A program made the position numbers and the translations under genes. This document shows positions 178-38,407 of a stretch of 43,094 nt of DNA, in pieces. Origin of the DNA: an uncultured Methanosarcinales archaeon (GTDB lineage: Archaea > Nanobdellota > Nanobdellia > Woesearchaeales > CAZYIM01). The stretch is taken from the NCBI GenBank assembly GCA_964647565.1, contig CAZYIM010000012.1, positions 22,414 through 65,507 of the forward strand, in the 5' to 3' direction. The stretch's first letter is position 1; each line of letters starts with the position of its first letter. Under the pieces are notes generated by a model. It did not search any database. It was not told the origin of the DNA and saw only the letters and a program-made list of their open reading frames with translations.

Positions 178-1554
178 ATGAATATCTGGAAAAAAACATT
201 ATTGATATTTATACTCATCTCGGTGATGAGTATTTCAAGCTGTCATAAATCAAGTATCAACGAATTTGAATGCAACACATGTAATATTATTCTAATAACA
301 ATCGACACTCTACGCGCTGATCATTTGGGTTGCTATGGATATGAAAGAAATACTAGTCCAACTATTGATCATATAGCAAAAGAATCTTATATTTTTAGAA
401 CTGCCATAAGTCCTAAACCTAGTACTGTACCTGGTATATTCTCTCTTTTTACTGGATTAGAGCCATTTTATGTTGAAAATGGGTATACAATAGAGAGTTA
501 TGGCAACACGATTCCTCAAATTATGAAAAATTCAGGCTATAAGACTATAGGAATTGTTGGTACAAACATATTATCCAGATATTACGGCTTTGACAAAGGA
601 TTTGATATATTTCATGATACTGAAGACTTACCAACACATAAAAATTATTATATGGTAAATGCTTCTGTTCTTGTAGAGAAAGCTATCGAAGCAATTGAAC
701 AAGGAAAAAAACAACACCTATTCTTATGGATCCATTTCAAAGAACCTCACGCAAGATACGATCCTCCAGATAAATATAAACAAATGTTTATTGATTATGG
801 AAATGAGGTAATTCAGATACCCAAAGTCAACCCGGATGCTAGTGATGGAATTGGAGGCGTCTCAAGTTTTGATTATCTAGATAACAGCACAAACCTTTTG
901 TATTATATCTCACAATATGATTCTGAGATCAGATATTGTGATGACCAGATAGGTCTTCTGATAAATAAGTTAAAAGAGCAAGACATGTATAATGATTCAT
1001 TGATCGTGATAGCTTCAGATCATGGAGAGTCATTAGGTGAAAATGAATACTATTTTGGACATGGGGACTTCTTAGATTCTGCAAATGTAGACATTCCCTT
1101 ATTGATTAAAATCCCTGGACAAAAAGAAAAAAAAGAGATAGATGATCTAGTTGTCCTAGCTGATTTGTATGGTTTCTTTAACAATTTTATAGGTCAGGAA
1201 AATCTTGATATAAAATATGACCTCATGAATCTTTTGAAAAATAAAAATTGGCCTGAAAGAACTATTAAATTAGAGAATACTCATACTAATCTGAAAGTTG
1301 AAAAAATATTTGGAATTATGAATAAATCCAAAAGACATATCCTGGTTGATATAACTAATGAAACTTATTATTATGATTTTACAATCTCAGATGAAAAACA
1401 ACATATTATTGGAAATGAGAATATTGTGAATGAACTCGTCCAAACAAGAGTTTATATTAAACAAATACAGGACAATAGGAAGGAACAATACTTAGATAAA
1501 GAAACAATAAAACGACTCCAATCACTAGGATATCTTAACTTAAAGAATGATTAA
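178..1554 (+). CDS. Sulfatase-like hydrolase/transferase (alkaline phosphatase superfamily), putative lipoprotein
   Basis: IDTLRADHLGCYGY, HFKEPH, SDHGE, GHG and C-terminal RLQSLGY. N-terminal hydrophobic segment ending ISSC. Nucleophile region is STVPG rather than CxPxR. Confidence 0.9.
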   Translation: MNIWKKTLLIFILISVMSISSCHKSSINEFECNTCNIILITIDTLRADHLGCYGYERNTSPTIDHIAKESYIFRTAISPKPSTVPGIFSLFTGLEPFYVENGYTIESYGNTIPQIMKNSGYKTIGIVGTNILSRYYGFDKGFDIFHDTEDLPTHKNYYMVNASVLVEKAIEAIEQGKKQHLFLWIHFKEPHARYDPPDKYKQMFIDYGNEVIQIPKVNPDASDGIGGVSSFDYLDNSTNLLYYISQYDSEIRYCDDQIGLLINKLKEQDMYNDSLIVIASDHGESLGENEYYFGHGDFLDSANVDIPLLIKIPGQKEKKEIDDLVVLADLYGFFNNFIGQENLDIKYDLMNLLKNKNWPERTIKLENTHTNLKVEKIFGIMNKSKRHILVDITNETYYYDFTISDEKQHIIGNENIVNELVQTRVYIKQIQDNRKEQYLDKETIKRLQSLGYLNLKND

Positions 1555-2830
1555 ATCATCGAATAAAAAAAAAAGATTTATAATACTTAAAATTTTTGTA
1601 TTATTAGTCCTAGTTGCTTGCCCATTAATACTCTTAATCCAGTCAGCAAATTTTAATAAAATCCAAGATAATAATCCCAAGATATTGATTTTGGGGATCG
1701 ATGGGATGGAGTGGAATATTATCTATCCCTTGATTGAGCAAGGAAAACTACCAAACATAAAAAAACTTATGGATGGAGGTGTATATGGTCCGCTTAAATC
1801 ACTAGAACCATTAAAATCACCTCTTATATGGAATACTATATCCACCGGAAGGACACCTGAAGAGCACGGAATAATTGATTTTTTTATCAACAATCAAACG
1901 TACACATCCAAACATAGAAAAACACCTGCTTTATGGAACCTATTATCTGATAATAACAAGAGTGTTGGTGTAGTGAATTATTGGGCAAGTTGGCCAGCTG
2001 AAGAAGTAAATGGTTTCATTATAAGTGATCGATATGAAAAGTTTTTTTGGAAATTTGCCGAAGGCGAAGAAAATGATACCAATAAAGCCTCTGAATTAAA
2101 TCTTATCCACCCGCCCCATATATTAGACTCATTCATGGAATCTGAAAAAGAAAAATATACTTTTTCAGTGATTTCTGAGGAATTAAATAGATTTTCAAAA
2201 TATAAATTTAGTCAATTACATATGACATATGATATAAACTCTACTGATGATGAGTTTTATAACTATTTATTATCAAGAGTTTATTGGGGATATTTAGAAG
2301 ATAAAACTCGTACTGAGATAATACTACATATCCTAGCAAATCAACAGCAACCAGAATTTTTAATAGTCTATTTAGCAGGTACAGACTATGTTTCCCACAA
2401 ATTCTGGCAATATTACCAACAAGAGATTAATTTCACCCCTTTTAACCAATCTGCACTCGATAAAGAAGAAGAACTATTTAGCAACATGATTCCATTATTT
2501 TATGAATATGTTGATAACAATATTGGAAGGATAATAAGACAAGTGGACAATGATACTAACATTATCATACTATCAGATCATGGCTTTAAGGCTTTTCTAT
2601 TAGATGATTATAGACTTAGAAGATATATTAAAGGCGATCATCGAATATACGGGGTGTTCATAGCAAATGGACCTGAATTTAGAAAAAAAGGCTTAATTGA
2701 TGAATTAAGTGTTTATGATATTACCCCTTTAGTTTTATACCTTAACAATATAAAAAAAGATAAAAAAATGACTGGAAAGATCCCAAAAAAAATCTTAAAC
2801 TCTCAGGGGATATTTGATTATTTAACCTAG
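1547..2830 (+). CDS. Alkaline phosphatase/nucleotide pyrophosphatase-phosphodiesterase superfamily protein, N-terminally membrane anchored
   Basis: ILGIDGMEW, KSPLIWNTISTG, DYVSH, SDHGF and GDH...GVFIANG motifs; N-terminal TM helix. Confidence 0.85.
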   Translation: MIKSSNKKKRFIILKIFVLLVLVACPLILLIQSANFNKIQDNNPKILILGIDGMEWNIIYPLIEQGKLPNIKKLMDGGVYGPLKSLEPLKSPLIWNTISTGRTPEEHGIIDFFINNQTYTSKHRKTPALWNLLSDNNKSVGVVNYWASWPAEEVNGFIISDRYEKFFWKFAEGEENDTNKASELNLIHPPHILDSFMESEKEKYTFSVISEELNRFSKYKFSQLHMTYDINSTDDEFYNYLLSRVYWGYLEDKTRTEIILHILANQQQPEFLIVYLAGTDYVSHKFWQYYQQEINFTPFNQSALDKEEELFSNMIPLFYEYVDNNIGRIIRQVDNDTNIIILSDHGFKAFLLDDYRLRRYIKGDHRIYGVFIANGPEFRKKGLIDELSVYDITPLVLYLNNIKKDKKMTGKIPKKILNSQGIFDYLT

Positions 2831-2931
2831 CCTAATTTTTTCATAAATAAAATTAATAAATTATTTAAGCACATATATGAATATTTAAATAAATAAAAAT
2901 ATATAAAAAACCACTAGTTGAGATATTCTTG

Positions 2932-4347
2932 ATGAAAAAAAAAAAAATTGAAATTATTCTTGGCATCATCATTATCTTAGGTATATTTCTATTAAAGCTA
3001 AACATCCTTAATGAGCCGTATTATTATATGGAAATGAGAAATATGAATTGGGCACTTAAACAAATGGATGAATTTAATCTATCTTATGATAAAATCCACC
3101 CACCAGGACAGGAAATAATTTTTGCTATGTCATGGAATGTATTAGGGTATTCAATAGTAAGCTCTCATTCATTAAACATATTCCTCGGAATTATTGGCTT
3201 GGCGTACTTATATTTGTTAGGTAAACATATAGTAAACTCAAGAGTTGGACTGGGAGCAGTCATCCTACTAATTTTCAATCAAATATTTTTTACAAACCTT
3301 GGTATTTCCGAAGAATTTATGCTTCTAACAACACTAGGTATAATTACAGTTTATTATTATCTTAAAAAAAAGAACATTCTATTCACCATATTTGCTACAA
3401 CCATGCTTATGACTAGAGAGACTTCTGCTTTAATTATCTTATCGATAGGAATACATTATTTATTAATCCGATTACAAAAAAATAAAAAAATAAGGTTTAA
3501 AGATATAAAGTCTTGTTGGTTTATTTTTGTACCAATACTCCCGCTTCTAGCAATTGCAATCGCTCAATTAACAAATGTTGGATTAGTATTCAGGGCAGAT
3601 AGGTTTTTACTCAAAACAGAATTTGTACAGCCGTTCATAATGTTCATATTCACACATTTGTTTCATGATTCCTCGATAGCTAACGTAAACAAATTCAATT
3701 TCATAATCTTTGTTTGTATTATTGTAAGCCAAATTATGCTGATAAGATCAAAAATATCAGAAAAAAAACCCGGCTTACATTTTTTATTTTGGTTAATATT
3801 GATTTTGCATATGGCCTTATTTTCATATGTGGCACCCCAACCTAAAAGAATTCTGCCTGTTTTACCCTTTTTTTATATGTTAGGAGCATATTCAATTTAT
3901 ATCCTTACCTTAAAATTCAAATATAAAAAAATAATTTATGCAATATTTATCTTTTTTTGTGTATTATTATTTACCACTAATTATGCTGGAACCAGAATTA
4001 CAAAACCCGAAGAATTACAATCTAATATGGATTACTTAGATGAAATTCACATACAAAAAGAAGCCATTAGATATTTAGAGACTAAATTTTCAAATGAAAC
4101 TATTATGGCAATTTGGCCCATGTATGATAAAATGGTTCATATGGAATATGGATATATAACAAAAAGATTAGAAGTGTATGATGATAGACATTTATCGATT
4201 TTTTATGAGGGATTATTTATTCATCTTCCAAGAGCAAGATGGTCAAACTGGCTTAAAGAAATATTGGAAAAAGACGATCTAGAGTTAGTTCATAAATTTG
4301 AAAAAAATGGAAAAGTTATTGAGATTTATAATTATTCTAGACGTTAG
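2932..4347 (+). CDS. GT-C (ArnT/PMT-like) multi-pass membrane glycosyltransferase
   Basis: Many hydrophobic helices, HPPG motif in first external loop, soluble C-terminal domain. ATG at 2932 preferred over TTG at 2929. Confidence 0.7.
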   Translation: MKKKKIEIILGIIIILGIFLLKLNILNEPYYYMEMRNMNWALKQMDEFNLSYDKIHPPGQEIIFAMSWNVLGYSIVSSHSLNIFLGIIGLAYLYLLGKHIVNSRVGLGAVILLIFNQIFFTNLGISEEFMLLTTLGIITVYYYLKKKNILFTIFATTMLMTRETSALIILSIGIHYLLIRLQKNKKIRFKDIKSCWFIFVPILPLLAIAIAQLTNVGLVFRADRFLLKTEFVQPFIMFIFTHLFHDSSIANVNKFNFIIFVCIIVSQIMLIRSKISEKKPGLHFLFWLILILHMALFSYVAPQPKRILPVLPFFYMLGAYSIYILTLKFKYKKIIYAIFIFFCVLLFTTNYAGTRITKPEELQSNMDYLDEIHIQKEAIRYLETKFSNETIMAIWPMYDKMVHMEYGYITKRLEVYDDRHLSIFYEGLFIHLPRARWSNWLKEILEKDDLELVHKFEKNGKVIEIYNYSRR

Positions 4348-5024
4348 AAAAAATTTTTAATGAGAGAGTATAGATATCTCCACCCATCTCGCAAGATACT
4401 GATACTGGAAATCCCATATTTCCTTTTTAGTTCTTTACATGGAACTTCAACAATTGTATAGCCTTTCTTTAAAATCTTCATAGTCATTTCAGTTTCAATC
4501 TCTGTATGTGTCGATTCAAGCTTCAAACTATGAAAAACAGATGCTTTTATTGCTCGAAATCCATTTTGGGTGTCTGTTAATGATTGCTTGAATCGCAAAT
4601 TGATGACTGCATTAATACAACTAGATAAGAAATTTCTAACTAAATTATTAAAACTGCCGCTCAATTCTTCAGATCCCCCTAAGAATCTAGATCCAATAAC
4701 CATATCGGCTTTATTAGTTATTATAGGTTTTATTAGTTTAGGTATATCTTCAGTAATATGTGATCCGTCAGCATCAATGAAAATAATAATACCTTCAGTT
4801 ATTTTTTTTGTAGCACATTTAAGCCCATCACCTTTTCCTAGCCCGTTATCAACAATAATCTCAACATCTGAAGATTCTGCCAGTTGTTTTGTCCGATCAT
4901 AAGAATTTTTTGCTAAAGCAACTATTATTTTATCACATAAAGGTTTAGCTCCCTTAATTATGTTATTAATTGTATTTTCTTCATTCAACGCAGGTATAAC
5001 AGCAACAATTTTTTGATTTTTCAT
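4344..5024 (-). CDS. GT2 glycosyltransferase, DPM1-like (polyprenol-phosphate glycosyltransferase)
   Basis: VIPALNEE, GKG, FIDADGSH, VIGSRF, DTQNGFRA, RKYGISSI motifs. Confidence 0.9.
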   Translation of the reverse strand: MKNQKIVAVIPALNEENTINNIIKGAKPLCDKIIVALAKNSYDRTKQLAESSDVEIIVDNGLGKGDGLKCATKKITEGIIIFIDADGSHITEDIPKLIKPIITNKADMVIGSRFLGGSEELSGSFNNLVRNFLSSCINAVINLRFKQSLTDTQNGFRAIKASVFHSLKLESTHTEIETEMTMKILKKGYTIVEVPCKELKRKYGISSISILRDGWRYLYSLIKNFF

Positions 5025-5051
5025 ATCTTGATAGTTTCTTTTTGATAGTAC

Positions 5052-5066
5052 TATAAAAAGTTTGCT
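5052..5066 (-). promoter_or_regulatory. Putative archaeal BRE/TATA promoter for the GT2 gene
   Basis: Minus strand GCAAAC-TTTTTATA, 28 nt upstream of the ATG at 5024. Confidence 0.45.
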
Positions 5067-5150
5067 GAAGCTAATGATTAGAACATTAAAGTAAATTATT
5101 TAAACAGTCAAAACAGGAATAAATAAATTGCTGAGATCGTATATAAGAAA

Positions 5151-6494
5151 ATGAATATAATAAAAGGTTTAATAATTATTATGCTGTGTACTATTTTCCT
5201 ATTAAATTCTTGCTATAACCCAAACTTGTCTGAGTCTAATTATGAAGAAATAAAAAGCGAACTTATTTGTGAGGAATGCAATGTCATAATAATCGTCATC
5301 GATGCACTAAGACCGGATCATTTAGGATGTTATGGATATATAAGAGAAACAAGTCCAAATATAGATTCATTATGTAAGAAAAGTATTGTTTTTGAAAATG
5401 CAATCGCTCAATCAACATGGACCAAACCTTCAGTCACTTCACTCTTTGTCTCAAATTATGTCAAACACCATAAGATAACTTCAGGTTCTCCTTATTATGG
5501 TGATAATGACAACTCCAGTTTCCTTCCTGATTCGGCACTCACTATTGCAAAGGTCCTATCTTCTTATGAATACAAGACAAAAGCTCTAACAAGCAATCTC
5601 TTTATCCAAAGGAGTTTTGGCCTGGAACAAGGTTTTGATGAATACATACTTACGGAGAATGATAAGGAAATAACTAAAAATACAATTGAATGGATATCTC
5701 AGAATAAAGATAATAAAATATTCCTTTATCTGCATTACATGGCGCCGCATGCAGATTATGATCCTCCTGCAAAGGATCGATTATTTTTCAAGAAAGATTA
5801 CAGCGGATCTATTAATTTCGCTGGAAAACATCAGAAGTACTTCAATTCCGAAGTAAAGATGAGTGATGAGGATATTGAAGAGCTTGTAGCAAGATATGAT
5901 GGTGAAATCAGGTTCATAGACAGAGAAATCCAGAAAATATTAACTTCACTTAAAGAACAAAATCTATCAGATAAAACAATCATCTTACTAACAGCAGATC
6001 ATGGAGAACTCTTAGGCGAGAATGGTGAATTCGGCCACTTGATCCCCCATAATAAGGTAGTGCATATACCCTTATTAATCCACATCCCGGGGATGGCTCG
6101 AAGAGAAGATAAAGTGAGAATAGCTGAACTGATAGATATAGCACCCACGTTACTAAATATTCTACAATTTGAAATACCTAATAGGTTCAGGGGTATTGAC
6201 CTTTTATCAGTAAAGAATAGAAAAGAATACGGATTTTCAGAGATAAGAAACTGGACCTTGATTAAGAATCAAGAATTTATATTTAAAACAGATAAAAAAG
6301 GATTTGAACTTTACAATATTCAAGATGATCCTTTTGAGCTAGTTGATTTAAGTAATGATAAACCTGAAATTGTTCAAAAGTTCCAAATTGTCTTAAGGGC
6401 TTTTAATGAATCTGAAACTAAGCAAAAGTTGGGATCTAAAGGGGTCAACCAAGACATTTTAAATAGGCTAAAAGCATTAGGATATGTTAATTAG
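5151..6494 (+). CDS. Sulfatase-like hydrolase/transferase, putative lipoprotein
   Basis: IDALRPDHLGCYGY, WTKPSVTSLF, HYMAPH, TADHGE, ELYNIQDDPFE, C-terminal RLKALGYV; signal ending LLNSC. Confidence 0.9.
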   Translation: MNIIKGLIIIMLCTIFLLNSCYNPNLSESNYEEIKSELICEECNVIIIVIDALRPDHLGCYGYIRETSPNIDSLCKKSIVFENAIAQSTWTKPSVTSLFVSNYVKHHKITSGSPYYGDNDNSSFLPDSALTIAKVLSSYEYKTKALTSNLFIQRSFGLEQGFDEYILTENDKEITKNTIEWISQNKDNKIFLYLHYMAPHADYDPPAKDRLFFKKDYSGSINFAGKHQKYFNSEVKMSDEDIEELVARYDGEIRFIDREIQKILTSLKEQNLSDKTIILLTADHGELLGENGEFGHLIPHNKVVHIPLLIHIPGMARREDKVRIAELIDIAPTLLNILQFEIPNRFRGIDLLSVKNRKEYGFSEIRNWTLIKNQEFIFKTDKKGFELYNIQDDPFELVDLSNDKPEIVQKFQIVLRAFNESETKQKLGSKGVNQDILNRLKALGYVN

Positions 6495-7474
6495 TTCTTA
6501 ATAATCCCATAAATTAATCCTATCGCATAAGAAATGTGAGTGCACGGGAATAGTACGATAAGAAGTGGAACTGATAACAGTTTTTTTTCTGTAAACGCTT
6601 TCTTAAAAGAAACAATAATATCTAATAATGCATAACTCCCTAAAGGTATAAAATAAAATAGTGGATTGTAAAAAACAAGCGAAATCAGATAAATCAAGAA
6701 AATTAACGGAATTACAAAAATCAAAGAAAAAGACTTTGGAAGCTTCTTAATATGCTGCATCCTACCTTTACCATAAAAAAAGATTTGTCTCATAAATGAG
6801 AAAATAGACTTTCTCCTGTGATGATAAACTATCAATTCAGGACAGTAAAGCATCTTTTGTCCAAAATCAGTTAACCTATTCAACAATATATTCTCTTCAT
6901 TGCACAAAACATCTTCATCAAATTTAACCTTATTGAATAATTCCATATTAATAGCCAGGTTACAAAGTATCAAAGATTTCTCATCTGCATAGGACCCTCT
7001 TTTTCTCGATACATATCTAGCGCTCATAGGTCCGGTTCCAAAGAATGACTCAAAAATATATCCAGTACTTTGTTGAATAAATCCATCAGAATGAGGCGTA
7101 AGATTCGGCCCTCCAAGTATATTGATTGAAGGATTTTTCTTAATTTTTTTCCAGAGAACATCTAATGTGTTTTCAGCGATAAAGGTATCATCATCAAGAA
7201 AATAGATAAATTGTCCATTAGCTTTTTTTAATCCATAGTTGCGAGCAGATCCATTGCTTGATTGCTTGATTTGTTTAAAATTAAGATGTGATGTAATCTG
7301 GGAGTAATTTTTTAAAAAGTCAATTGTCTTCTTATCGACACCATTAATAATGATGACTATTTGTATCGAACAGGGTTTGACTGCTTTCTCAATGCTCTTA
7401 AGGCACTGCTTTAACATCTGCAGTCTATTTCGTGTTAATATGAGAATGGTCAAATCAGAATTCTTTTTTTGCAT
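6491..7474 (-). CDS. GT2 glycosyltransferase with C-terminal TM helices
   Basis: ARNYG, FLDDDT (DxD), CNLA, VYHHRR, QIFFYGKGR, then hydrophobic helices. Confidence 0.9.
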   Translation of the reverse strand: MQKKNSDLTILILTRNRLQMLKQCLKSIEKAVKPCSIQIVIIINGVDKKTIDFLKNYSQITSHLNFKQIKQSSNGSARNYGLKKANGQFIYFLDDDTFIAENTLDVLWKKIKKNPSINILGGPNLTPHSDGFIQQSTGYIFESFFGTGPMSARYVSRKRGSYADEKSLILCNLAINMELFNKVKFDEDVLCNEENILLNRLTDFGQKMLYCPELIVYHHRRKSIFSFMRQIFFYGKGRMQHIKKLPKSFSLIFVIPLIFLIYLISLVFYNPLFYFIPLGSYALLDIIVSFKKAFTEKKLLSVPLLIVLFPCTHISYAIGLIYGIIKN

Positions 7475-7490
7475 CTTAAATAGGCTTGTT

Positions 7491-7886
7491 TCAATATAGT
7501 TTCATAGAACTAATTTGCATCTGTATAAAACTCTTGGTTTTCTCCCATAATTTTGAAGGATAACGATAATTGTTAATAAATTCAGTATAAAGGAAAATAT
7601 CAGGATCTATTTTCAATAATAACCGTTTTAGCCGTGCTTTGGTAGCAGACTCTTTTGAGGCATTTTGATATTCTGTCCAATCCTGAAAATAGAAACCCGA
7701 AGGTGTTAAGAATTCTTTCAGATGATGCTTCCAAATATTCAGATTCAATATGCAAACATCAAAACCCTTCTGTTTAAGGAAAGAGGAAATATATCCTAAT
7801 CCTAACAAACATCTAGTTGGTAATGAAACTAAGCTCGGTGAATTAATTAAAAGAATTTTTTTCTTGGCTTGCATAGTCAAATACAC
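7491..7886 (-). pseudogene. Truncated B12-binding radical SAM gene (N-terminal B12-binding fragment only)
   Basis: KILLINSP...LGLGYISSFLKQKGFDVCILNLN...IDPDIF matches the start of the four intact B12-rSAMs here. The ORF stops at 131 aa with no GG motif and no CxxxCxxC. Confidence 0.65.
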
Positions 7887-7965
7887 CCCCTTACAAGAAC
7901 TATAATCAAAACTTATTTATAACTGTTTAGTTTTTTGGGATCATGTTCAAAGGGGTTTTGTTTTA

Positions 7966-8826
7966 ATGAAAAAAGATTTTAGCATTAAGATTGCTGTTGC
8001 AGGTATATGCTGTTTAATTAAATTAGTAAGAGTTCCATATCATACACCCGCCAAATCATTTTTCAAGACCTTTATTTCAACTACGCAACCAAAGATAAAA
8101 ATAACTATTTATCCTCAAGTTTCAAAGCAATTTCGGAATCTTGTCAAGAAGAATGGAAAAACAGTTGACATCAAAGAGCCTGAACAGGTTTCTATTAAAA
8201 AAGATCTAGCCACAGTTTCTGCAGAAGCATTTCAAGGCACTTTTAACAGAAAGAAAAAGGAGGGTATATTTTATGTTTCAATGAGCAAGGACATTGTCTT
8301 AATTGCAGTCAGAAATATTATCAGGCTCTGTTATGCCTTGACGCTTTTAGACATGGAAGGATGCTTAATCCACGGAGCAGGGATCAAAACTGGACGCAAT
8401 GGATATCTTATGGTCGGCGGGGCTTCTTCGGGAAAATCTACAGCTGCAGGCCTTATAGGCAAAATCATACTCAATGATGAATTTGTAGTTGTCCGAAGAG
8501 TTAACCATAGATTGCGGATTTTTGGAACTCCTTTTGGAGGCGATCACCCACCCTCAAACCAAGAAGTAAGATTAACACACGTTTTTTTCCTCAATAAGAG
8601 CAGACATGAAAAAATCATCAAAAACAACCCAATTGAGGGTATAAAAAAGATTCTTGCAAATGAGTTCTTATTTATGACCTTAATAGGAAAAAAAGAAAAA
8701 TCTACAATGAAGAAAACTTTTAAATTGATATCTGATTTATTGCAGAATAAACCTTCGTTTGATTTATTTTTTAAAAGGGATTCAAACATCAGGAGAATGA
8801 TAGATGGACTTGAAAAAAAAGCCTAA
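7966..8826 (+). CDS. HPr kinase-like P-loop protein (ScmC/PadeK-like putative peptide kinase)
   Basis: LIHGAG, Walker A-like GGASSGKST, ILNDEFVVV and IFGTPFGG, the pattern of HprK-related kinases found beside PqqD genes. Confidence 0.8.
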   Translation: MKKDFSIKIAVAGICCLIKLVRVPYHTPAKSFFKTFISTTQPKIKITIYPQVSKQFRNLVKKNGKTVDIKEPEQVSIKKDLATVSAEAFQGTFNRKKKEGIFYVSMSKDIVLIAVRNIIRLCYALTLLDMEGCLIHGAGIKTGRNGYLMVGGASSGKSTAAGLIGKIILNDEFVVVRRVNHRLRIFGTPFGGDHPPSNQEVRLTHVFFLNKSRHEKIIKNNPIEGIKKILANEFLFMTLIGKKEKSTMKKTFKLISDLLQNKPSFDLFFKRDSNIRRMIDGLEKKA

Positions 8827-9070
8827 ACTGATAAAGGATGTTGAGTATAAGGAAATTGATAATGAGACCTTGATTTTCTTGCCAGATGAAGGAACATTCT
8901 TTGAGCTCAATCAAGTTGGTTCAATAGTTTGGAACTTGTGCACAGGAAAAAACACAGTTCAATCAATAATACATACAATCACTAATGAGTTCGATATTAA
9001 CTATACCTTATGTAAGAAAGATGTGACTGGATATCTTAATGAATTGGTAAGAAAGGGCTTAATTAAATAA
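8804..9070 (+). CDS. PqqD-family RiPP recognition element (stand-alone RRE)
   Basis: 88 aa; FFELNQVGSIVWNLCTG...NEFDI...KKDVTGYLNELVRKGLI matches the PqqD consensus (LN..G..IW...DG...DV..FL..L...GLI). Confidence 0.93.
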   Translation: MDLKKKPKLIKDVEYKEIDNETLIFLPDEGTFFELNQVGSIVWNLCTGKNTVQSIIHTITNEFDINYTLCKKDVTGYLNELVRKGLIK

Positions 9071-9079
9071 TAGATTAGT

Positions 9080-9118
9080 CGCTTCTTGCAACTAAAATCC
9101 GCTTCTTGCAACTAAGAT
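9080..9118. repeat. Tandem direct repeat, 20-bp period (cgcttcttgcaactaa[a/g]at x2)
   Basis: 9080-9098 vs 9100-9118 match at 18/19 positions. The repeat overlaps the 3' end of the precursor-like ORF. Confidence 0.9.
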
Positions 9119-9199
9119 GTTTGATAGATTGTTAAGAGTTTCAACTGATTTTATCTCAGGCTTTTCATATTTCTTTTTCATACAAGCTTCTTTTTCCAT
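9092..9199 (-). CDS. Putative RiPP precursor peptide (MEKEAC)MKKKYEKPEIKSVETLNNLSNILVARSGF*
   Basis: Hand-translated: ATG 9199 (35 aa) or ATG 9181 (29 aa) to TAG 9094-9092. KKKYEKPEI fits the YxxPxL/I RRE-binding leader motif. It lies between the RRE and peptidase genes with a TATA box 24 nt upstream. Absent from the ORF track. Confidence 0.75.
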   Translation of the reverse strand: MEKEACMKKKYEKPEIKSVETLNNLSNILVARSGF

Positions 9200-9217
9200 C
9201 GATCCATTTTATTATAA

Positions 9218-9238
9218 CAAACTATATAAATTTTTTCT
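9218..9238. promoter_or_regulatory. Putative bidirectional archaeal TATA promoter (precursor peptide / S26 peptidase)
   Basis: tatataaa at 9223-9230. On minus it reads GAAAAAA-TTTATATA, 24 nt before ATG 9199. On plus it ends 22 nt before ATG 9252. Confidence 0.5.
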
Positions 9239-9251
9239 TTTTAAATAAAGT

Positions 9252-9686
9252 ATGAATAAAAATCAGGAATACCAAAAGCTAGTACAACAAGCGATAATAA
9301 ATAATAATGAAACCACCTTACCTATTAAGGGGATGAGTATGTACCCTACTATTAAACACGGCGATAAGATCACCCTGAAAAGAGCTGACATCTCACAACT
9401 TAGTATTGGTGATGTTATCGCAGTTAGAGAAGGGCAAAAACTCCAAGTTCACAGAATAGTCTGGAAAAAAAGATCCCTTTTCGTTACTAAAGGAGACCAT
9501 AATTTTCATTTTGATTCAAAGGTTAAAAAAAACCAGATAATTGGTTTAGTGACCCAAATCAATAGAAGAGATAATAGAAGGTTCAAATATCGAACCAAAG
9601 CACAGATAATAGCAATAATCTCCCTTTGTTTTGGTTTGATTCATAGGCTTTATTACAGTATTAGGAAGTTCATCTCCAAAGCATAA
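9252..9686 (+). CDS. S26/S24-family peptidase (Ser-His, Sec11/SipW-type), putative leader peptidase
   Basis: KGMSMYPTIKHGD (catalytic Ser), VHRIV (His), TKGDHN...D, IIGLV. No N-terminal TM anchor. Confidence 0.88.
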   Translation: MNKNQEYQKLVQQAIINNNETTLPIKGMSMYPTIKHGDKITLKRADISQLSIGDVIAVREGQKLQVHRIVWKKRSLFVTKGDHNFHFDSKVKKNQIIGLVTQINRRDNRRFKYRTKAQIIAIISLCFGLIHRLYYSIRKFISKA

Positions 9687-10701
9687 CCCAGCATTCTTTG
9701 AGCTTATCCTTAAAAGGTTTTTCATATAAGCCTCCTATGATGCAGCATTTAGAGCAAAAAGCTGCCTTGTGTTTTAGTTCGGCCTTGCTTTTTTTGAAGA
9801 GGTTTTTAATGTTAGTCTGAGTTACATTTCCCATCTGAGGCATCAAGCAGGAATTGAGAGTACCGTCAGGATCGACGGAAAGTACATTCAAAGCGCTTCG
9901 GCAAAGATTGTCTGCCCGCTTTGGTTGAAGTAAATTATCTTCTATGTAGTAATCCAGAATAAGTCTCAGATTTTTTTCAGCATTATTGATGTGTGCGTCC
10001 TTTTGTTTTAATCCAATCAGCTTATTTATCAAGTTTTTGAGATCATCATACTGCTTTGGCTGAATCCATATATCCTTATATCTATCCTTCCATTTATTGA
10101 ACAGGGGCCTGACTATGATGCCGTCTAAATTTTCTTTTCTTACAAATTGAACCAAATCAATAATCTGGTCTAGATTGTTAGACATAAGGATAGACCTAAG
10201 ATAAATCTTCATATCAGAGCCGTATTTGGAGCGAGCTGCTTTCAGATGTTGTATCGCTGAAAGTGCTTTTTTCAGGGAATTTTCTTTCTGTGTTATTTCA
10301 TTATTGACCTTAGAATCAAGGCTTTGTATAGAGATGACAATAGAATTAAGACCAGAATCAGTCAATTTTTTCGCCATGATTTGATCTATGAAGAATCCGT
10401 TTGAATCAATATTGGTTATTAAACCTTTTTTGGAAGCATACATTAAGATGTCTGTTGTGTCCTTCCTTAACAATGGTTCGCCACCTGAAAATGAGATAAA
10501 ACAGCTACCCAACCATTTGCTTATCTGTTGAATAAAAAGTTTCCATTGCTCTTTACTCAACTCTTTTGATTCAAGCTCTTGATAGAAGCACATCTGACAG
10601 TTATAGTTGCATCTGTTTGTCAGATCAACACAAACCAAGGTGGGACGCTTAATCAACCTCGAAACTATCAGGTGCCTGAGCTTTAAGAAACTTTTTTTCA
10701 T
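9670..10701 (-). CDS. Radical SAM protein with SPASM/Twitch domain
   Basis: CNYNCQMC, SGGEPLL, SNG; C-terminal C...DPDGTLNSC...GNV...CSKCC. Confidence 0.92.
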   Translation of the reverse strand: MKKSFLKLRHLIVSRLIKRPTLVCVDLTNRCNYNCQMCFYQELESKELSKEQWKLFIQQISKWLGSCFISFSGGEPLLRKDTTDILMYASKKGLITNIDSNGFFIDQIMAKKLTDSGLNSIVISIQSLDSKVNNEITQKENSLKKALSAIQHLKAARSKYGSDMKIYLRSILMSNNLDQIIDLVQFVRKENLDGIIVRPLFNKWKDRYKDIWIQPKQYDDLKNLINKLIGLKQKDAHINNAEKNLRLILDYYIEDNLLQPKRADNLCRSALNVLSVDPDGTLNSCLMPQMGNVTQTNIKNLFKKSKAELKHKAAFCSKCCIIGGLYEKPFKDKLKECWVMLWR

Positions 10702-10724
10702 CGATATAAAAGAAAAGCATTAAT

Positions 10725-10759
10725 TATATAAAGGTTATTATCAAACAAAATGAGGGGGT
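10725..10759. promoter_or_regulatory. Divergent TATA box (10725-10732) and purine-rich RBS GAGGGGGT (10752-10759)
   Basis: tatataaa lies 24 nt upstream of the minus-strand ATG 10701. On plus it is followed by GAGGGGGT-AAAA-ATA, in frame with the nucleotidyltransferase. Confidence 0.5.
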
Positions 10760-10763
10760 AAAA

Positions 10764-11831
10764 ATAGGAAAAATAGAAGAAGAACTGATACTTGCTTGTC
10801 TTAATGATGACCAGAATAGAATTGGTAATATTATTAAATCTGAATTAGATTGGATGTCTTTTCTTGATCTTTGCGAATATCATATGATCTGGTCAAATAT
10901 TTATAACAATGTCAAGAGCAGAAAAGATATCCCGATAAAAGTGATTAGACATCTTAAAGAATTGGTTGTTTCAAACACTATACAAAATATGGTATTGTTT
11001 CAAGAAACCAAGATGATTTTCTCAAATCTCAACTGTTTCAGAGAGAAAGCAATCCTACTTAAAGGATTCTCTATTTCTGAAAAGACAAATGAAGACTATA
11101 CCTTCAGATTTACATCAGATATTGATATTCTAGTTCCCGAAGGCAGAATTGCTCAAGTTGGCAAAAGATTAAAAGAACTGGATTATGCCAAAAACTCAGA
11201 TTATATAAATAATTATTGGAATGCTTGGGATGAGGCGAAATCCCATCATGATCTTCCATTGACAAAAAAAATAAAGGATATGAAGGTTTGTGTTGAGCTT
11301 CACAATGGATTAGTTTTTACTAACAGCCCTTTTAATATCAGCAATAAAAGATTGTGGGAACAAAAAGATTCAATTAAGTTAGGAAATATAAAAATTCCAT
11401 CATTATCAACAGAGCACATGTTGATTCATATGTGTCTGCAGCTGGCTTACCAGCATAGCTTCAGGACTGCAATCCGAGACCTGCTAGACATATCAGCCAT
11501 ATTGAAAAAGAAGAAGATAAGATGGGATTCAATTGTTAAGGATGCGGTTGACTGGGGTGCTTCAGCCTTTGTTTATAGATGTTTAGAGCTTACAGTTCTG
11601 TTCTTTAGGATTGATATACCTAAAAAAGTTCTGGAACATCTGAGGAAAAAATCAAAAAAGAATCAACTTTGGTTGATTAACCACTTCAACAAGAAAAGCA
11701 TCCTGAAAATCAGGGCAGACTCAGAATATAAATTAATGCACTGGGGCCTTCAGTTCCTTTTTGCAGAAGATTTCAAGAATAAATTGGCTGTAATCAGAAA
11801 AGGACTGCTTTTTGTAAAAGAGAAAATATGA
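10764..11831 (+). CDS. Nucleotidyltransferase family protein (NTP_transf_5-like); probable non-ATG start upstream of the first ATG at 10854
   Basis: ILLKG, RFTSDIDILV, VELH, IRDLLDI motifs. The frame is open upstream of 10854 and reads IGKIEEELILACL...ELDW, the usual N-terminus of this family. Confidence 0.85.
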   Translation: MGKIEEELILACLNDDQNRIGNIIKSELDWMSFLDLCEYHMIWSNIYNNVKSRKDIPIKVIRHLKELVVSNTIQNMVLFQETKMIFSNLNCFREKAILLKGFSISEKTNEDYTFRFTSDIDILVPEGRIAQVGKRLKELDYAKNSDYINNYWNAWDEAKSHHDLPLTKKIKDMKVCVELHNGLVFTNSPFNISNKRLWEQKDSIKLGNIKIPSLSTEHMLIHMCLQLAYQHSFRTAIRDLLDISAILKKKKIRWDSIVKDAVDWGASAFVYRCLELTVLFFRIDIPKKVLEHLRKKSKKNQLWLINHFNKKSILKIRADSEYKLMHWGLQFLFAEDFKNKLAVIRKGLLFVKEKI

Positions 11832-13264
11832 ACAAAAAAAAACATCAAGGAAAAAAATTGAAAATTGCTTTCATAAACACATATACAGACCCAACAGAAT
11901 CAGCTCTATTTGGAAGCTTTTCAAGCAGATTAGTACCGATGGGAATACTTCTATTAGCTTCGATTATTCGAAAACAAGGGCATGTTATTAGTATTGTAGA
12001 TTATAATCATGAAAAAGAACAGAATACCCTGAATGATATCTTTAAAAAAAAACCAGATATTGTATTATTTAGTTCAACCACCCCTTTAATCGAATATGCA
12101 GTCAATCTTGCAAAAAAGATCAAAGCCTATGATAACAGCATCATCATTATAATCGGAGGCCCCCACATCAGTGTCTGCCCAAAAGAGACCTTGGAAAAAT
12201 ATCCTTCTTTTGACCTAGGTTTGACCGGGCAAAGCGAACAAAGCCTGATTAAGCTATTAGAACTCATGAAAAAAAAGAAGATACTCACAGAATTACCTGG
12301 GCTCGTATATAGACAAAAAAACCACATTGTCTATAATCCTCCCAGAACATATTCAAAATCTCTTGACGATCTCCCTTTCCCAGCTTGGGACCTGTTAAAA
12401 GGATTCCCTGACAAATATCAACCTACAATAACCAGCATAAAACAATCCCCTGCAGCATCCCTAATCACATCAAGAGGCTGCCCCTATAATTGCAAATTCT
12501 GTGATAAATCAATATTTGGAAGCCATTATCACGCAGAATCAGTCTCGCAGACAGTAGAAAAAATAAAATATCTGAATAAACGATTTGGAATCCAAGACAT
12601 ATTTTTCCTGGATGATGATTTTCTAATAGATAAAGAAAGGGTAAAACAAATTTGCCAAAGGATACTAGAACTAAAAATTAAAATCTCCTGGTCCTGCATT
12701 ACACGTGCATCTAATATAGAATCTGACTTGTTAAAACTCATGAAAATTGCAGGATGTTGGCAGCTTTCTTTCGGAGTCGAAAGCGGCTCCCAAACGATAT
12801 TGAACCTTATAAGCAAAGGAATTAGTGTAGAAAGTGCTAAAAAAAGCATACAAGAAACAAAAAAGGCAGGGATGAGTGCAAGGATATTCATAATGATAGG
12901 CTGTCCAGGCGAGACTATCAGCACTCTCAAAGAGACCATGAAATTCCTCAAGTTAACAGATCCAGATGATATAGTGCTTGGTTACTTTACACCCATCTGC
13001 GGTTCTGAGTTGAGCCAGGATTATGAAAAGTACGGTAAATTCGATTACTCGTGGAAGAATATGGATTTCTATAAACCTAATTTTATTCCACATTGTCTGG
13101 ATGTGAGCAATTTAATCGAGTATTACCGTAAGATTTTAATCAGTTTCTACCTAAAACCTAGGATCCTTGGACATTACCTGTTTAAGAAAAAACTAATATT
13201 TAATCCAAGTTTCATTATGGAAGGATTTAAAACAATCATGAAACTACTCGTTCCAGGGACATAA
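11828..13264 (+). CDS. B12-binding domain radical SAM protein
   Basis: PMGILLLAS, IGGPH, LDDLPFPAW, TSRGCPYNCKFC, FLDDDF, FGVESGS, IGCPGET. Confidence 0.93.
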   Translation: MNKKKHQGKKLKIAFINTYTDPTESALFGSFSSRLVPMGILLLASIIRKQGHVISIVDYNHEKEQNTLNDIFKKKPDIVLFSSTTPLIEYAVNLAKKIKAYDNSIIIIIGGPHISVCPKETLEKYPSFDLGLTGQSEQSLIKLLELMKKKKILTELPGLVYRQKNHIVYNPPRTYSKSLDDLPFPAWDLLKGFPDKYQPTITSIKQSPAASLITSRGCPYNCKFCDKSIFGSHYHAESVSQTVEKIKYLNKRFGIQDIFFLDDDFLIDKERVKQICQRILELKIKISWSCITRASNIESDLLKLMKIAGCWQLSFGVESGSQTILNLISKGISVESAKKSIQETKKAGMSARIFIMIGCPGETISTLKETMKFLKLTDPDDIVLGYFTPICGSELSQDYEKYGKFDYSWKNMDFYKPNFIPHCLDVSNLIEYYRKILISFYLKPRILGHYLFKKKLIFNPSFIMEGFKTIMKLLVPGT

Positions 13265-13265: not shown

Positions 13266-13964
13266 ATGCAATTATCACTGATCGTGCCAATGTTTAACGA
13301 GGAAGCTGTAGCCAAGATAAGCCATAAACGGATAAAATATGCTTTAAAAAATTATAAGAAATGTTACGAAATAATTTTTTGTGATGACGGTAGCATTGAC
13401 AAAACTAAACTGATTCTTCAGGACTTAGCTAAAACTGATCCACACACTAAAATGGTCTCCTATAAAGTGAACAGGGGAGTAGGATATGCGTATAGACAAG
13501 GACTCAAAATAGCTAAAGGCAAAAACATTATTTTCATGGATGCGGATCTGGCCATCAATCCTAATATAATAACAAAATTTGAAACTCAGCTAAATAGTTC
13601 AGATCTAGTGATTGCGTCTAGATACAAAGGAATCTCGCCGGATTATCCGCTTGGAAGGAAGCTGGCGAGCTATATCTATTATTTTATTAATAAGTTTATT
13701 TTCAGGCTGGATATCCGCGACACTCAAAGCGGATTCTTTGCAATAAAAAAGGAAGTCTTAAAAAGGATTGAGACCTTTTCAGATGGATTTGATATCTACA
13801 TTGAGATGTTCTATAAACTCAAGAAGAGGGGTATCAGAATAAAGGAGATTCCTGCCAAGTTTATACATCGGAAAGGAGGTAGTTTCAGTGTGCTTAAAGA
13901 TGGCCCAAAATTACTATTCGACACCCTAACCCTCTATTTAAAACTAAATAAATTAACAAAATGA
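13266..13964 (+). CDS. GT2 glycosyltransferase, polyprenol/dolichol-phosphate glycosyltransferase-like
   Basis: IVPMFNEE, CDDGS, FMDADL, IASRY, DTQSGF, HRKGGS. Confidence 0.9.
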   Translation: MQLSLIVPMFNEEAVAKISHKRIKYALKNYKKCYEIIFCDDGSIDKTKLILQDLAKTDPHTKMVSYKVNRGVGYAYRQGLKIAKGKNIIFMDADLAINPNIITKFETQLNSSDLVIASRYKGISPDYPLGRKLASYIYYFINKFIFRLDIRDTQSGFFAIKKEVLKRIETFSDGFDIYIEMFYKLKKRGIRIKEIPAKFIHRKGGSFSVLKDGPKLLFDTLTLYLKLNKLTK

Positions 13965-14977
13965 ATCCGTTCACCCAGAACAAACTATTAAGCTGCTATA
14001 ATGAGATAAAACAGATCAAACAGGGGAAAATCCCAGTTCCTCGCACAGTAGAGTTTTTTATTTCTAACAAATGTCAGCATGCCTGCCAAGATTGTCATTC
14101 CACCAGCCTGCATAATATCCAGCCCCATTTTATTGACACAAAAAAAACTAAAGAGATCTTGAGTGAACTCAAAGAACTGGGAGTTGAAGGCCTAGAGATT
14201 AGCGGGGGAGGAGAGCCTTTGCTCCATCCAGATTTCATTGAGATTATCAAGGATGCCAAAATCAAGGGATTCAAATTAGGACTATTTACCAACGGGATTC
14301 ATCTAGATAACCAATTAAGTGAACTTATACTTCAAAATTTTCTTTTTGTCAGAATAGCTTTAGACTCAGCTACCAGCACTACTTATTTGAAAGTTCATAA
14401 TGCTGATGACTTTAAAAAACTGGTCAAGAAGATCAAACAGCTGATAAGCCTTAAGAAGCAAATGGGCTCACAAACCACAATAGGCCTTAAATTCCTGATT
14501 TCAAAATTGAATGCGCATGAAGTTGACCTTACAATACAACTAGCTGAAAAAATCGGATCTGATTACTTACAGTTTAAATCATTAAGGAACAGTATTCAAG
14601 AACTGGAAGCTGACCAAGCCAAATTGATTCAAACCAAGATTGACGACGCCAAGAAAACCAGCAGCATCAATCTTTTCGGTAGCTTAATCAAAAGCAATAT
14701 AGACGAACCATGCAGTTTGAATCCATTGCACCCTCTCATAAATGCCACAGGGGATATTTTTCTTTGTGCATTTTTTCAACACAGAAAAGACAGCCACGCA
14801 ATAGGTAATATCCATAATGAGTCTTTTAAGAAAATCTGGTTTGGTAACAAACACAAGGAAGCTATCCGCAACTTAAAAATTGAAGAATGCAATATCTATG
14901 ATTGCCCATTCCACAGGCTTCAAAATTATTACAAGCAACATATTGAACCTAACAAATCACATTTTGAATTTATCTGA
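13961..14977 (+). CDS. Radical SAM protein with Twitch/SPASM domain
   Basis: CQHACQDC, SGGGEPLL, FTNG; C-terminal C...ATGDIFLC...IGNI...IW...ECNIYDC. Confidence 0.92.
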   Translation: MNPFTQNKLLSCYNEIKQIKQGKIPVPRTVEFFISNKCQHACQDCHSTSLHNIQPHFIDTKKTKEILSELKELGVEGLEISGGGEPLLHPDFIEIIKDAKIKGFKLGLFTNGIHLDNQLSELILQNFLFVRIALDSATSTTYLKVHNADDFKKLVKKIKQLISLKKQMGSQTTIGLKFLISKLNAHEVDLTIQLAEKIGSDYLQFKSLRNSIQELEADQAKLIQTKIDDAKKTSSINLFGSLIKSNIDEPCSLNPLHPLINATGDIFLCAFFQHRKDSHAIGNIHNESFKKIWFGNKHKEAIRNLKIEECNIYDCPFHRLQNYYKQHIEPNKSHFEFI

Positions 14978-37230: not shown

Positions 37231-38061
37231 TTAATTTAAGCTAAATTTAAGGTCTATAATCCCAGAAGGTGCGTCTTTTTCAGAAATGATATTAAAAATA
37301 TACTTTTTGTAATGATGATTAAATGGATAAGAAATAGCATCATCATATGCTGCAACAGATAAAAAGTAAGTTCCCGTTAACATAGGCAATTTATTGATTT
37401 TAAATATCATTTCGCCTTCACCTTGAAGAGATCCGATTTTCTTCTTAATATGATTGTTATTGGCACCGAAAATCAACACCCCATCATAGCTGTGAATGGC
37501 AAATCCAATAACAGGGTTATCTATCTTATCCTTAGCATAATAGTCAATTTTGATTTTAAGCGCATCTCCTGTATGAAAAATAACCGATTCTACATTCTTT
37601 CTTAGCAATTGGACATTCCTGATAACCAACTCTTTAAAACCCCATGTTCGGGATTCTGCTTTTTCGCATGAACAAAAAGAATATGTAAACGTTAAGGTTT
37701 CAAGAATTAAATTTTCAAGATCATTTAATTCCTTAAGAACAGGATCATCCTTTTTTAAACCATGCTTAGAACTATCTAAAGCCGATAAGCAATTTCTAAG
37801 ATGGAATCCTATCTGCTGTTCAATAAAATCTTTATTTGAAATTACAGATTGGGGACTACCTTTTTGAAGATATTTAAAAAAATTTGTTAAGAATTCAGAA
37901 GCTTCTTTAAAGAGTCCTTGTTGAAAAAGAGATTCAATATTATTAAGAAATTCCGAGATACTAGCACGAATGTTGGGATAATCCTTTAATAAAGATACTT
38001 GAGTTGAAAAAACAGAACAGGCTTCTTTAATAAGCGATATCTTCCCATTATTAGATTGCAT
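37231..38061 (-). CDS. Stand-alone Wzt C-terminal (carbohydrate-binding) domain protein with helical N-terminus
   Basis: WGFKELVIRNVQLL...FHTGD...NPVIGFAI...DGVLIFG...LPMLTGTYFLSVAAYD...GII, the Ig-like Wzt_C pattern. Confidence 0.8.
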   Translation of the reverse strand: MQSNNGKISLIKEACSVFSTQVSLLKDYPNIRASISEFLNNIESLFQQGLFKEASEFLTNFFKYLQKGSPQSVISNKDFIEQQIGFHLRNCLSALDSSKHGLKKDDPVLKELNDLENLILETLTFTYSFCSCEKAESRTWGFKELVIRNVQLLRKNVESVIFHTGDALKIKIDYYAKDKIDNPVIGFAIHSYDGVLIFGANNNHIKKKIGSLQGEGEMIFKINKLPMLTGTYFLSVAAYDDAISYPFNHHYKKYIFNIISEKDAPSGIIDLKFSLN

Positions 38062-38062
38062 T

Positions 38063-38359
38063 TCAATATTGGCTCTTAATCTCAGCCATAATAATACTCT
38101 GGAGTGCTGTAACCAGTTTCGCCCTTACATTTTCAGGAAGTTTGTTAGAAAGCTCTTTTTTAATCATGTTCTTACATCGCAATATTATTTCCCTTTCTTG
38201 ACTCAAGCCCCCCGCTTTATCAATATAATCAATAATTGCATCCCCCAAGTCAGAAATCAGTTTCTGGCGCCTTATAGGATCTTTGGTTTTGGATAATTCT
38301 GTAGTGAGAACTTCTATTAGTTCAGTAAGTAAAGAATTGATTGATTCTTCTTCAGTCAT
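38063..38359 (-). CDS. Small helical-repeat protein related to the Wzt C-terminal tail
   Basis: 98 aa with GGGGG RBS and TATA upstream; 24-aa periodicity resembling Wzt residues 404-499. Confidence 0.7.
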   Translation of the reverse strand: MTEEESINSLLTELIEVLTTELSKTKDPIRRQKLISDLGDAIIDYIDKAGGLSQEREIILRCKNMIKKELSNKLPENVRAKLVTALQSIIMAEIKSQY

Positions 38360-38392
38360 TTAAAACCCCCAACACAGATAGAAAGAAAGGAT

Positions 38393-38407
38393 TATAAAAA
38401 GGTTTCT
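38393..38407 (-). promoter_or_regulatory. Putative archaeal BRE/TATA promoter
   Basis: Minus strand AGAAACC-TTTTTATA, 34 nt upstream of ATG 38359, with a GGGGG RBS at 38366-38370. Confidence 0.5.

Follow-up and report, generated by a model that had tools for sequence, protein, structure and literature searches.

A short-peptide cassette with kinase-like, RRE, peptidase and radical SAM genes in an archaeal glycan-type island, and its likeness to linear polyphosphorylated peptide clusters

A 43,094 nt stretch of archaeal DNA (the window), from contig C12 of a genome 2.68 Mb in size and 87% complete, carries a cassette encoding a P-loop kinase-like protein, a discrete PqqD-type recognition element for ribosomally synthesised and post-translationally modified peptides (RiPP recognition element, RRE), a short peptide, a peptidase of the S24/S26 type, a radical S-adenosylmethionine (rSAM) enzyme and a nucleotidyltransferase-family protein. 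An initial annotation of this DNA had named these six adjacent genes, and all six open reading frames (ORFs) are present, including the short peptide ORF with its YxxPxI motif (here YEKPEI), which lies on the minus strand. The cassette is more than a chance adjacency, as other genomes contain the gene set together with a homologous short peptide. The small-subunit ribosomal RNA of the host genome scores 1405 bits against the archaeal model and 1048 bits against the bacterial model.

Genes of the cassette and their setting

The genes, with their positions in the window, are:

7966–8826, plus strand: P-loop kinase-like protein, 286 aa (Pfam PF27840 ScmC; HprK/phosphoenolpyruvate carboxykinase (PEPCK) fold)
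8804–9070, plus strand: discrete PqqD-type RRE, 88 aa (PF05402, E 2.7e-15), overlapping the kinase gene by 23 bases
9092–9199, minus strand: precursor peptide MEKEACMKKKYEKPEIKSVETLNNLSNILVARSGF, 35 aa from the first ATG, with YEKPEI
9252–9686, plus strand: S24/S26 peptidase, a paralogue of signal peptidase I (SpI) of the SipW/archaeal type, 144 aa (TIGR02228, Pfam S24)
9670–10701, minus strand: rSAM enzyme with a Cys-rich C-terminal (SPASM/twitch-like) region, 343 aa (PF04055, E 2.4e-20)
10854–11831, plus strand: NTP_transf_5 protein, 325 aa (PF14907, E 5.3e-37)
11828–13264, plus strand: B12-binding rSAM enzyme, a probable methyltransferase (PF02310 and PF04055), overlapping the NTP_transf_5 gene by 4 bases
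13266–13964, plus strand: family 2 glycosyltransferase (GT2; PF00535, E 1e-26), within the packed string
13961–14977, plus strand: rSAM/SPASM enzyme (PF04055 and PF13186), overlapping the GT2 gene by 4 bases; a homologue of it likewise comes after a GT2 in locus L021
14986–16086, plus strand: rSAM/SPASM enzyme (PF04055 and PF13186), final gene of the co-directional string

Neighbours among the last five of these genes overlap by 4 bases or lie 1 or 8 bases apart, and this tight spacing indicates a unit that probably extends to about 16086, beyond the six genes originally named. The nucleotidyltransferase assignment made initially is well founded (PF14907 at 128 bits against a cut-off of 31.2); the protein carries a D89-x-D91 motif and is encoded by the one PF14907 gene found in the whole genome. 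The PF05402 match likewise bears out the stand-alone PqqD/RRE, the sole PqqD found in the genome. The rSAM enzyme at 9670–10701 had been described as a SPASM/Twitch protein, of which the rSAM domain stands but the SPASM region reaches only 18.6 bits against a Pfam cut-off of 21.5. Its homologue in a Woesearchaeota metagenome-assembled genome (MAG; locus L021) is 34% identical over the full length and is encoded directly upstream of the peptide gene there. A PqqE model is matched in the window at E 4e-25, with 88 bits against a cut-off of 381.

The surroundings are a glycan-type island, in line with the initial annotation. The window contains 12 rSAM genes, four GT2 and one GT4 glycosyltransferase genes, three PMT_2 genes, two methyltransferases, three sulfatase/phosphodiesterase-family proteins, a Polysacc_synt flippase and an ABC-2/Wzt exporter; four of the 12 rSAM proteins encoded in these 43 kb have B12-binding domains and six have SPASM domains above the Pfam cut-off. 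The island is unusually dense in rSAM genes, which are interleaved with glycan genes, and L021 is of similar make-up. The three sulfatase/phosphodiesterase-family genes (178–6494) flank the island and belong to the alkaline-phosphatase superfamily, with weak EptA/LtaS-like matches; their products could attach phospho-substituents to surface polymers or take them off. Next to the cassette, a minus-strand ORF of 131 aa (7491–7886) has no significant family match. Possibly a truncated remnant, it has an N-terminus like the starts of B12-binding rSAM proteins, one of which, in L021, shares 70% identity with it over 17 aa.

Recurrence of the gene set and its short peptide

A search with the kinase-like protein in 400 other genomes of the phylum gave four matches, three of them good (G150, G036 and G217), and of 60 genomes sampled from the same order at one per family, G150 alone matched well. 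A scan of species representatives with an alignment of the family (A2) added L021, a locus in an Altiarchaeota MAG (L022) and one on a short Planctomycetia contig (L023), its remaining locus (L024) being G150; with only four loci this is a small census. Six archaeal loci are counted in what follows (the window, L016, L017, L018, L021 and L022), all of which carry the kinase-like gene by construction and whose content was read by tblastn and Pfam. The S24/S26 peptidase is present in five of the six and was not found in 20.8 kb of L021; PqqD is present in five, L016 giving no match to the window protein; PF14907 is present in five and was not found in L022, which stops at a contig end. All six have a homologue of the B12-binding rSAM enzyme (tblastn E <= 2e-6), and in four the Pfam B12-binding domain itself was detected. 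Glycosyltransferase genes accompany five of the six loci, with none in the six scanned ORFs of L017. An orthologue of the SPASM-type rSAM enzyme of the window was seen in none of L016, L017 and L022 (tblastn E <= 1e-3).

The bacterial locus L023 has, in one string, S24, a sigma-54-like gene, PF14907, the kinase-like gene, PqqD and an rSAM gene. The PqqD gene of L021 stands between two homologues of the B12-binding rSAM enzyme. A relative of the kinase, P0007, is a 582-aa fusion of a GT2 domain with a ScmC/HprK-like kinase, and in its GT2 half it shares 43% identity with the L016 cassette GT2 and only 21–23% with the GT2s of the window.

Individual loci have features of their own. An AMP-binding (PaaK-like) ligase gene directly adjoins the peptide gene of L017 (10977–12266, minus strand), which suggests an additional, different tailoring step in that version of the cassette. 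In L016 the first ~95 residues of a 602-aa rSAM ORF (5940–7748) are nearly repeated in the neighbouring NTP_transf_5 gene (7726–8775), near the N-terminus from about residue 40, so that part of the cassette is duplicated or fused internally. The host genome of the window is the sole member of its family in the collection and, at 2.68 Mb, is larger than all same-order genomes among the matches listed (0.6–2.1 Mb).

Beside the cassette, all six archaeal loci encode a short peptide that carries Y-x-x-P-x-[IL]; no peptide with this motif was found in the 6.4 kb of the bacterial locus L023. The six peptides are:

Window: MKKKYEKPEIKSVETLNNLSNILVARSGF
L021: MIKKDSYEKPTIKKIGNLSDLANKVCTTTGTEA
L016: MTSKYIKPKIRTLKDITEIANKIICGSIINS
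L022: MEKVVSDSRKREYHTPSLEPLDKLNKLSSKILTQTCSCDGYVIPVWI
L017: MKKNKYMAPKIKKLDKIEILDARTT
L018: MKKMYQKPSLREVVELEAPVVATASQQ

Comparison with these homologues suggests that the window peptide likely starts at the second ATG, at 9181, giving 29 aa. With the Tyr as reference, positions +5, +8, +11 and mostly +14 are hydrophobic, and the tails are variable. The bare motif is not rare, with one or two unrelated matches per locus in our scan. The peptide was therefore tested by leave-one-out, with a profile made from the five peptides outside this genome: searched against 100,013 stop-to-stop segments of at least 15 aa in all six frames of the window's own genome, it returned window 9095–9208 (minus strand) at E 4.4e-5, the sole match below E 1, with the next best at E 1.2. 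A conserved short peptide in homologous cassettes, which the initial annotation had proposed as a check, is thus present. Ser or Thr occurs within the last five residues in five of the six peptides, as in paeninodin-type substrates, and a conserved Ser/Thr phospho-acceptor could not be fixed from the six.

The 3′ end of the peptide gene contains a 19-nt direct repeat in two copies at a spacing of 20 nt (9080–9098 and 9100–9118), lying across the stop codon. Read from the sequence, removal of one copy would end the ORF in ...LVARSD instead of ...LVARSGF. Contigs from four public DNA runs (marine/seawater metagenomes) show no difference from the window, pieces spanning the repeat included; these runs come from two studies, possibly including the source, at a depth of only about 2–4. 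Two TATA-like boxes can be read 20–50 nt upstream of two candidate start codons.

Counterparts in linear polyphosphorylated peptide clusters

The initial description of this pathway as uncharacterised has been out of date since May 2026, the clusters for linear polyphosphorylated peptides (LPPs) of Bacillota having the same core of kinase, RRE, SpI and PF14907 protein (Popov et al., Nat Commun 2026; PMC13381572). As reported there, the lppA-K-B-S-D-N clusters encode a discrete RRE (LppB), an HprK-like kinase (LppK; TIGR04352), a PF14907 protein (LppN), an MsbA-like protein (LppD; TIGR02204) and LppS (TIGR02228), and are embedded in capsule loci; the precursors have 35–200 aa and the motif YxxPxVLxHQxIxFETxxS. 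LppK adds up to four phosphates to core Ser3, and LppS (S29/H68/D93) cuts the leader after T-1, only with LppB. LPPs are stated in the same report to be restricted to Bacillota, with their final product and role remaining unknown; its Supplementary Data 1 includes nine archaeal SpI, two of which (Zestosphaera and a Bathyarchaeota MAG) have an 'other' RRE and none an LPP RRE.

The kinase-like protein of the window, of HprK/PEPCK fold, is a candidate counterpart of LppK, and the window shares with these clusters a discrete PqqD RRE, PF14907, a YxxPx[V/I/L] leader, an archaeal-type SpI leader peptidase with a comparable triad (S29/H67/D82, against S29/H68/D93 in LppS), the lack of a cyclase and a position in a polysaccharide locus. 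It differs in its archaeal host, in the length of the precursors (25–47 aa in the archaeal loci and 29–35 aa in the window, against 35–200 aa), in the added B12-binding and SPASM-type rSAM enzymes, and in a kinase that matches the ScmC profile no worse than HprK_rel_A.

The closest solved relative of the RRE in the window is LppB (9x8z_B, E 4.4e-9), ahead of the lasso peptide RREs TbiB1 (E 1.6e-6) and PbaB1 (9x90, E 2.6e-4). The motif YxxPx[IL] is recognised by lasso and LPP RREs alike, and in the solved complex an Asn and an Asp of LppB hold the Pro and Tyr of the leader (PMC13381572). These residues (N33 and D70 in the numbering of that paper) have N36 and D73 as their aligned counterparts in the window RRE, 37 residues apart in both proteins. 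When the RRE and the 35-aa peptide were folded together in silico, the prediction scored 0.56, against 0.02 for the best of three controls, with a contact agreement between runs of at least 82% and a partner pLDDT (predicted local distance difference test) of at least 56. The mark that this prediction passes was also passed by 51 out of 78 solved complexes and by 2 out of 108 mismatched pairs; at scores of 0.60 or below, however, it covers only 5 of those 78 complexes and all 4 passing mismatches (of 180), so that the fold lends weak support. As RRE–leader complexes have already been solved, the pass may also reflect likeness only. The initial proposal that the RRE binds the peptide thus stands as a prediction, consistent with the conserved Tyr- and Pro-holding residues and with the fold.

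The peptidase scores 57.9 bits against TIGR02228 (sigpep_I_arch; cut-off 51.85) and 25.8 bits against Pfam S24 (cut-off 23.3), and among the sequences of solved structures it matched only SEC11A, at E 0.14. Its S29, H67 and D82 lie in GxSMxP, HR[IVL] and KGD motifs conserved across six homologues, from which we predict a leader peptidase with a Ser/His/Asp triad. It had been called unanchored, which agrees with a polar N-terminus free of an anchor, but residues 119–137 near the C-terminus are hydrophobic (mean Kyte-Doolittle 1.75) and could form a tail anchor. The two other SpI homologues of the genome both have N-terminal hydrophobic helices, and the lack of one in the cassette protein marks it as a dedicated paralogue. 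Projected from the Tyr(-16) spacing of LppA, the cut in the four best-aligned peptides would come behind S, A, A and S, with N, N, N and S as the next residues. For the window this places the predicted cut after ...NLS and yields a predicted core of nine residues, NILVARSGF, in which the one Ser is the sole hydroxyl residue.

The kinase-like protein alone matched nothing significantly in our copy of Pfam-A or in NCBIfam, its best single-sequence matches being ScmC (E 0.022), HprK_rel_B (E 0.024) and HprK_rel_A (E 0.14), and a word-indexed homologue search returned only the protein itself. Its precomputed Pfam label is PF27840, and the Atlas family name is ScmC, with nearest clusters at a score of 0.96. 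A profile of four archaeal homologues (A1), searched exhaustively against 1.84 billion representatives, matched 15,272 proteins at E <= 1e-3, 4,110 at E <= 1e-10 and just 37 at E <= 1e-30, which indicates a small close subfamily. When 81 family members from this search (alignment A3) were compared singly with the models, 64 matched ScmC, 64 HprK_rel_A, 59 HprK_rel_B, 16 the PEP carboxykinase model and 7 HPr(Ser) kinase/phosphatase; the 64 of 81 matching TIGR04352, the model of LppK, do so at E <= 0.01, against E 0.14 for the window protein alone. An AlphaFold2 model built on A3 (mean pLDDT 94.7, predicted template modelling score 0.92) found ATP-dependent PEP carboxykinases at the top of a Foldseek search (1oen, E 2.7e-7), with the HPr kinase/phosphatase 1knx at rank 32 (E 2.2e-5); VIA-align gave Z 14.8 against PEPCK 2pc9_A, with a root-mean-square deviation of 4.4 Å over 242 residues. 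The profile gave generic P-loop matches only against the sequences of solved structures. Conserved residues include H136, the P-loop G151–T159 (GGASSGKST) and D171–E172, and the motif order H-G...GxxGxGKS/T...DE is the same as in the LppK alignment of the LPP supplement (PMC13381572). We accept the initial label of HprK-like kinase as a statement of fold and family, although the single-sequence matches are all non-significant; its kinase activity is a prediction.

Proposed pathway and competing readings

Taken together, we hold with moderate confidence that the locus is an archaeal, rSAM-rich pathway of LPP type, the product of which would most likely be a tiny, leader-trimmed phosphopeptide that is probably capped with sugar. 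The discrete PqqD would bind the 29–35 aa precursor by its N-terminal K-K-x-Y-x-K-P-x-I leader, and the ScmC/HprK-like kinase would phosphorylate one or more core hydroxyls, the candidate in the window after the predicted cut being the Ser of ...ARSGF. The SpI paralogue (S29/H67/D82) would remove the leader in an RRE-dependent manner, leaving NILVARSGF, after which the PF14907 protein, probably with neighbouring glycosyltransferases, would cap the phosphate with sugar. The B12-binding and SPASM-type rSAM enzymes could add further changes, for example C-methylation, epimerisation or a cross-link. Much of this logic was in the initial annotation, in which the RRE presents the peptide, S26 cuts it, and kinase and NTP-transferase decorate it in connection with glycan synthesis: phosphorylation and RRE-dependent cleavage have been shown for LPPs, whereas a product of the NTP-transferase has not been seen there (PMC13381572). 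Its suggestion of a nucleotidylated core appears less likely than sugar on phosphate, judging from pseudomycoidin, in which the C-terminal Ser receives its phosphate from PsmK, and a hexose on that phosphate is reported to require the NTP-transferase-like PsmN (PMC6993621).

Several observations weigh against this interpretation. Beyond YxxPx[IL], the LPP leader consensus (..HQxIxFETxxS) is absent from the window peptide, and no Ser stands at predicted core position 3, the LPP phospho-site. Ser or Thr near the C-terminus is expected by chance about half the time per peptide and so is not evidence for a phospho-acceptor. The peptide of the window has no Cys, which excludes thioether chemistry of the SPASM type there. 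The protein proposed as its kinase scores just 11–14 bits against the curated HprK-related and ScmC models, and the gene set has gaps, with the queries used, at S26 in L021, PqqD in L016 and PF14907 in the contig-end locus L022. The role of PF14907 is unsettled in LPP clusters themselves, where deletion of lppN is reported to cause no detectable change and no LppN product was detected (PMC13381572). An MsbA-type ABC membrane domain occurs in none of the 39 Pfam-scanned ORFs of the window, a result of that scan and not of a genome-wide TIGR02204 search, which was not made; the only ABC genes of the window (ABC_tran, ABC2_membrane and Wzt_C) lie at 37231–40982, about 27 kb from the cassette. Finally, glycans or lipids may instead be the substrates of the twelve rSAM enzymes encoded in the island.

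Known pathways of related composition suggest other readings. In one, which we regard as unlikely, the rSAM enzymes are central, as in the computationally defined SynChlorMet cassettes (TIGR04248 ScmD, TIGR04249 ScmC, TIGR04250 ScmE and TIGR04251 ScmF), the ScmC-like protein has another ATP-dependent role such as activation or scaffolding, and S26 still cuts the leader. The kinase-like protein is indeed placed in Pfam ScmC, and this cassette type is defined by PqqD together with two rSAM/SPASM proteins, so that ScmC-family, PqqD-related and rSAM/SPASM proteins occur together in both; in L021 the peptide gene has the rSAM homologue directly upstream of it, on its own strand, and the PqqD gene is flanked by B12-binding rSAM homologues, a class found in all six archaeal loci. 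The HprK-like catalytic-type residues noted above are nevertheless retained, and the closest characterised relatives, LppK and PsmK, are described as peptide Ser kinases (PMC13381572, PMC6993621), and the SPASM-type rSAM enzyme was not found in every locus. All four SynChlorMet equivalogs score far below their cut-offs in the window (ScmC 14.1 bits against 125, ScmD 42.8 against 100, ScmE 51.2 against 400 and ScmF 57.0 against 400), the likeness to ScmC holds at the level of Pfam PF27840, and the named models include neither an S26 peptidase nor PF14907. A full-text literature search by name returned no paper on SynChlorMet. PqqD–PqqE and other RRE-dependent rSAM maturases likewise combine a discrete PqqD chaperone with an rSAM enzyme and a short peptide, but the peptide here has no motif of the Glu-X3-Tyr type, and a kinase, a peptidase and PF14907 are present. 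A pathway centred on rSAM chemistry and one of LPP type are not mutually exclusive. That the enzymes serve the glycan island alone, acting on sugars or lipids, with the short ORF a regulator, a chance ORF or an unrelated small protein, seems improbable to us. The cassette does sit within the 43 kb island of 12 rSAM and glycan genes, with NTP_transf_5, the B12-binding rSAM enzyme, GT2 and two further rSAM enzymes in one string; a discrete PqqD RRE is, however, a peptide-binding module, and a peptide with YxxPx[IL] accompanies the cassette in all six archaeal loci and is the sole genome-wide match of the leave-one-out profile.

The kinase, PF14907 and a discrete RRE are typical accessories of paeninodin-type lasso peptide clusters, and paeninodin and pseudomycoidin (PadeK, PsmK, PsmN) have in common with what is predicted for the window a kinase acting on a Ser at or near the C-terminus, a nucleotidyltransferase-like protein and an RRE with a [Y/W]xxP leader (PMC6993621, PMC13381572). 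With a genome only 87% complete, the cassette might then supply the accessory functions of a lasso pathway that has its cyclase and B2 protease encoded elsewhere, a reading that we reject as scarcely credible. The initial annotation had seen neither enzyme in the window, and none is among the window matches; either one elsewhere in the genome was to count against its reading, and a search beyond the window found PF13471 in none of the six archaeal cassette genomes, three of which are 95–99% complete, and NF033535 above its 525-bit cut-off in none of the five genomes searched, with a 20-bit match only in G217 (97% complete). The best NF033535 match in the window's own genome reaches 281 bits (241 when scanned genome-wide) and comes from an ORF that scores higher as an ordinary asparagine synthase; the Asn-synthase homologues of this genome are better explained as ordinary amidotransferases, one of them a Dph6 fusion. 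After the leader motif, ...LNNLSNILVARSGF offers no Asp or Glu to close a macrolactam. The window differs from paeninodin and pseudomycoidin in having no macrolactam cyclase, no B2 cysteine protease, no acidic ring residue, and a predicted leader removal by a serine peptidase. Chance adjacency, or a decaying, horizontally acquired remnant without a product, would fit the patchy distribution (four of 400 genomes, three matched well, and one good match among 60) and the 20-nt tandem duplication that alters the 3′ end of the peptide gene. We consider it very improbable, given that all ORFs are intact with their catalytic motifs, that gene content is conserved across distant lineages and that the sequence is identical in the contigs of the four public runs.

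A further possibility, which we think doubtful, is that the phosphorylated peptide is not the end product but an acceptor or 'primer' on which glycosyltransferases and rSAM enzymes of the island build a glycan. If so, a peptide–phosphate–glycan conjugate would tie RiPP machinery into envelope or surface-glycan synthesis in a small-genome archaeon, and would explain both the presence of LPP-type cassettes in glycan loci of Bacillota and archaea and the GT2–kinase fusion.

Literature searches on archaeal RiPPs, PqqD, HPr kinase and rSAM, and on PF14907, found no description of an archaeal cassette of this kind. What is new here is the archaeal host, the very short predicted cores, the B12-binding rSAM homologues in six of six archaeal loci, a window in whose scanned ORFs no MsbA-like exporter was seen, and the GT2–kinase fusion in a relative. 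If the locus is the LPP-type pathway that we favour, the module of kinase, RRE, SpI and PF14907 would be older or more mobile than reported, and would combine with B12-dependent and SPASM-type rSAM enzymes while its link to glycan genes is kept across domains. The predicted nine-residue core with its single Ser would, moreover, be an unusually simple substrate on which to study the function of the kinase and of PF14907.

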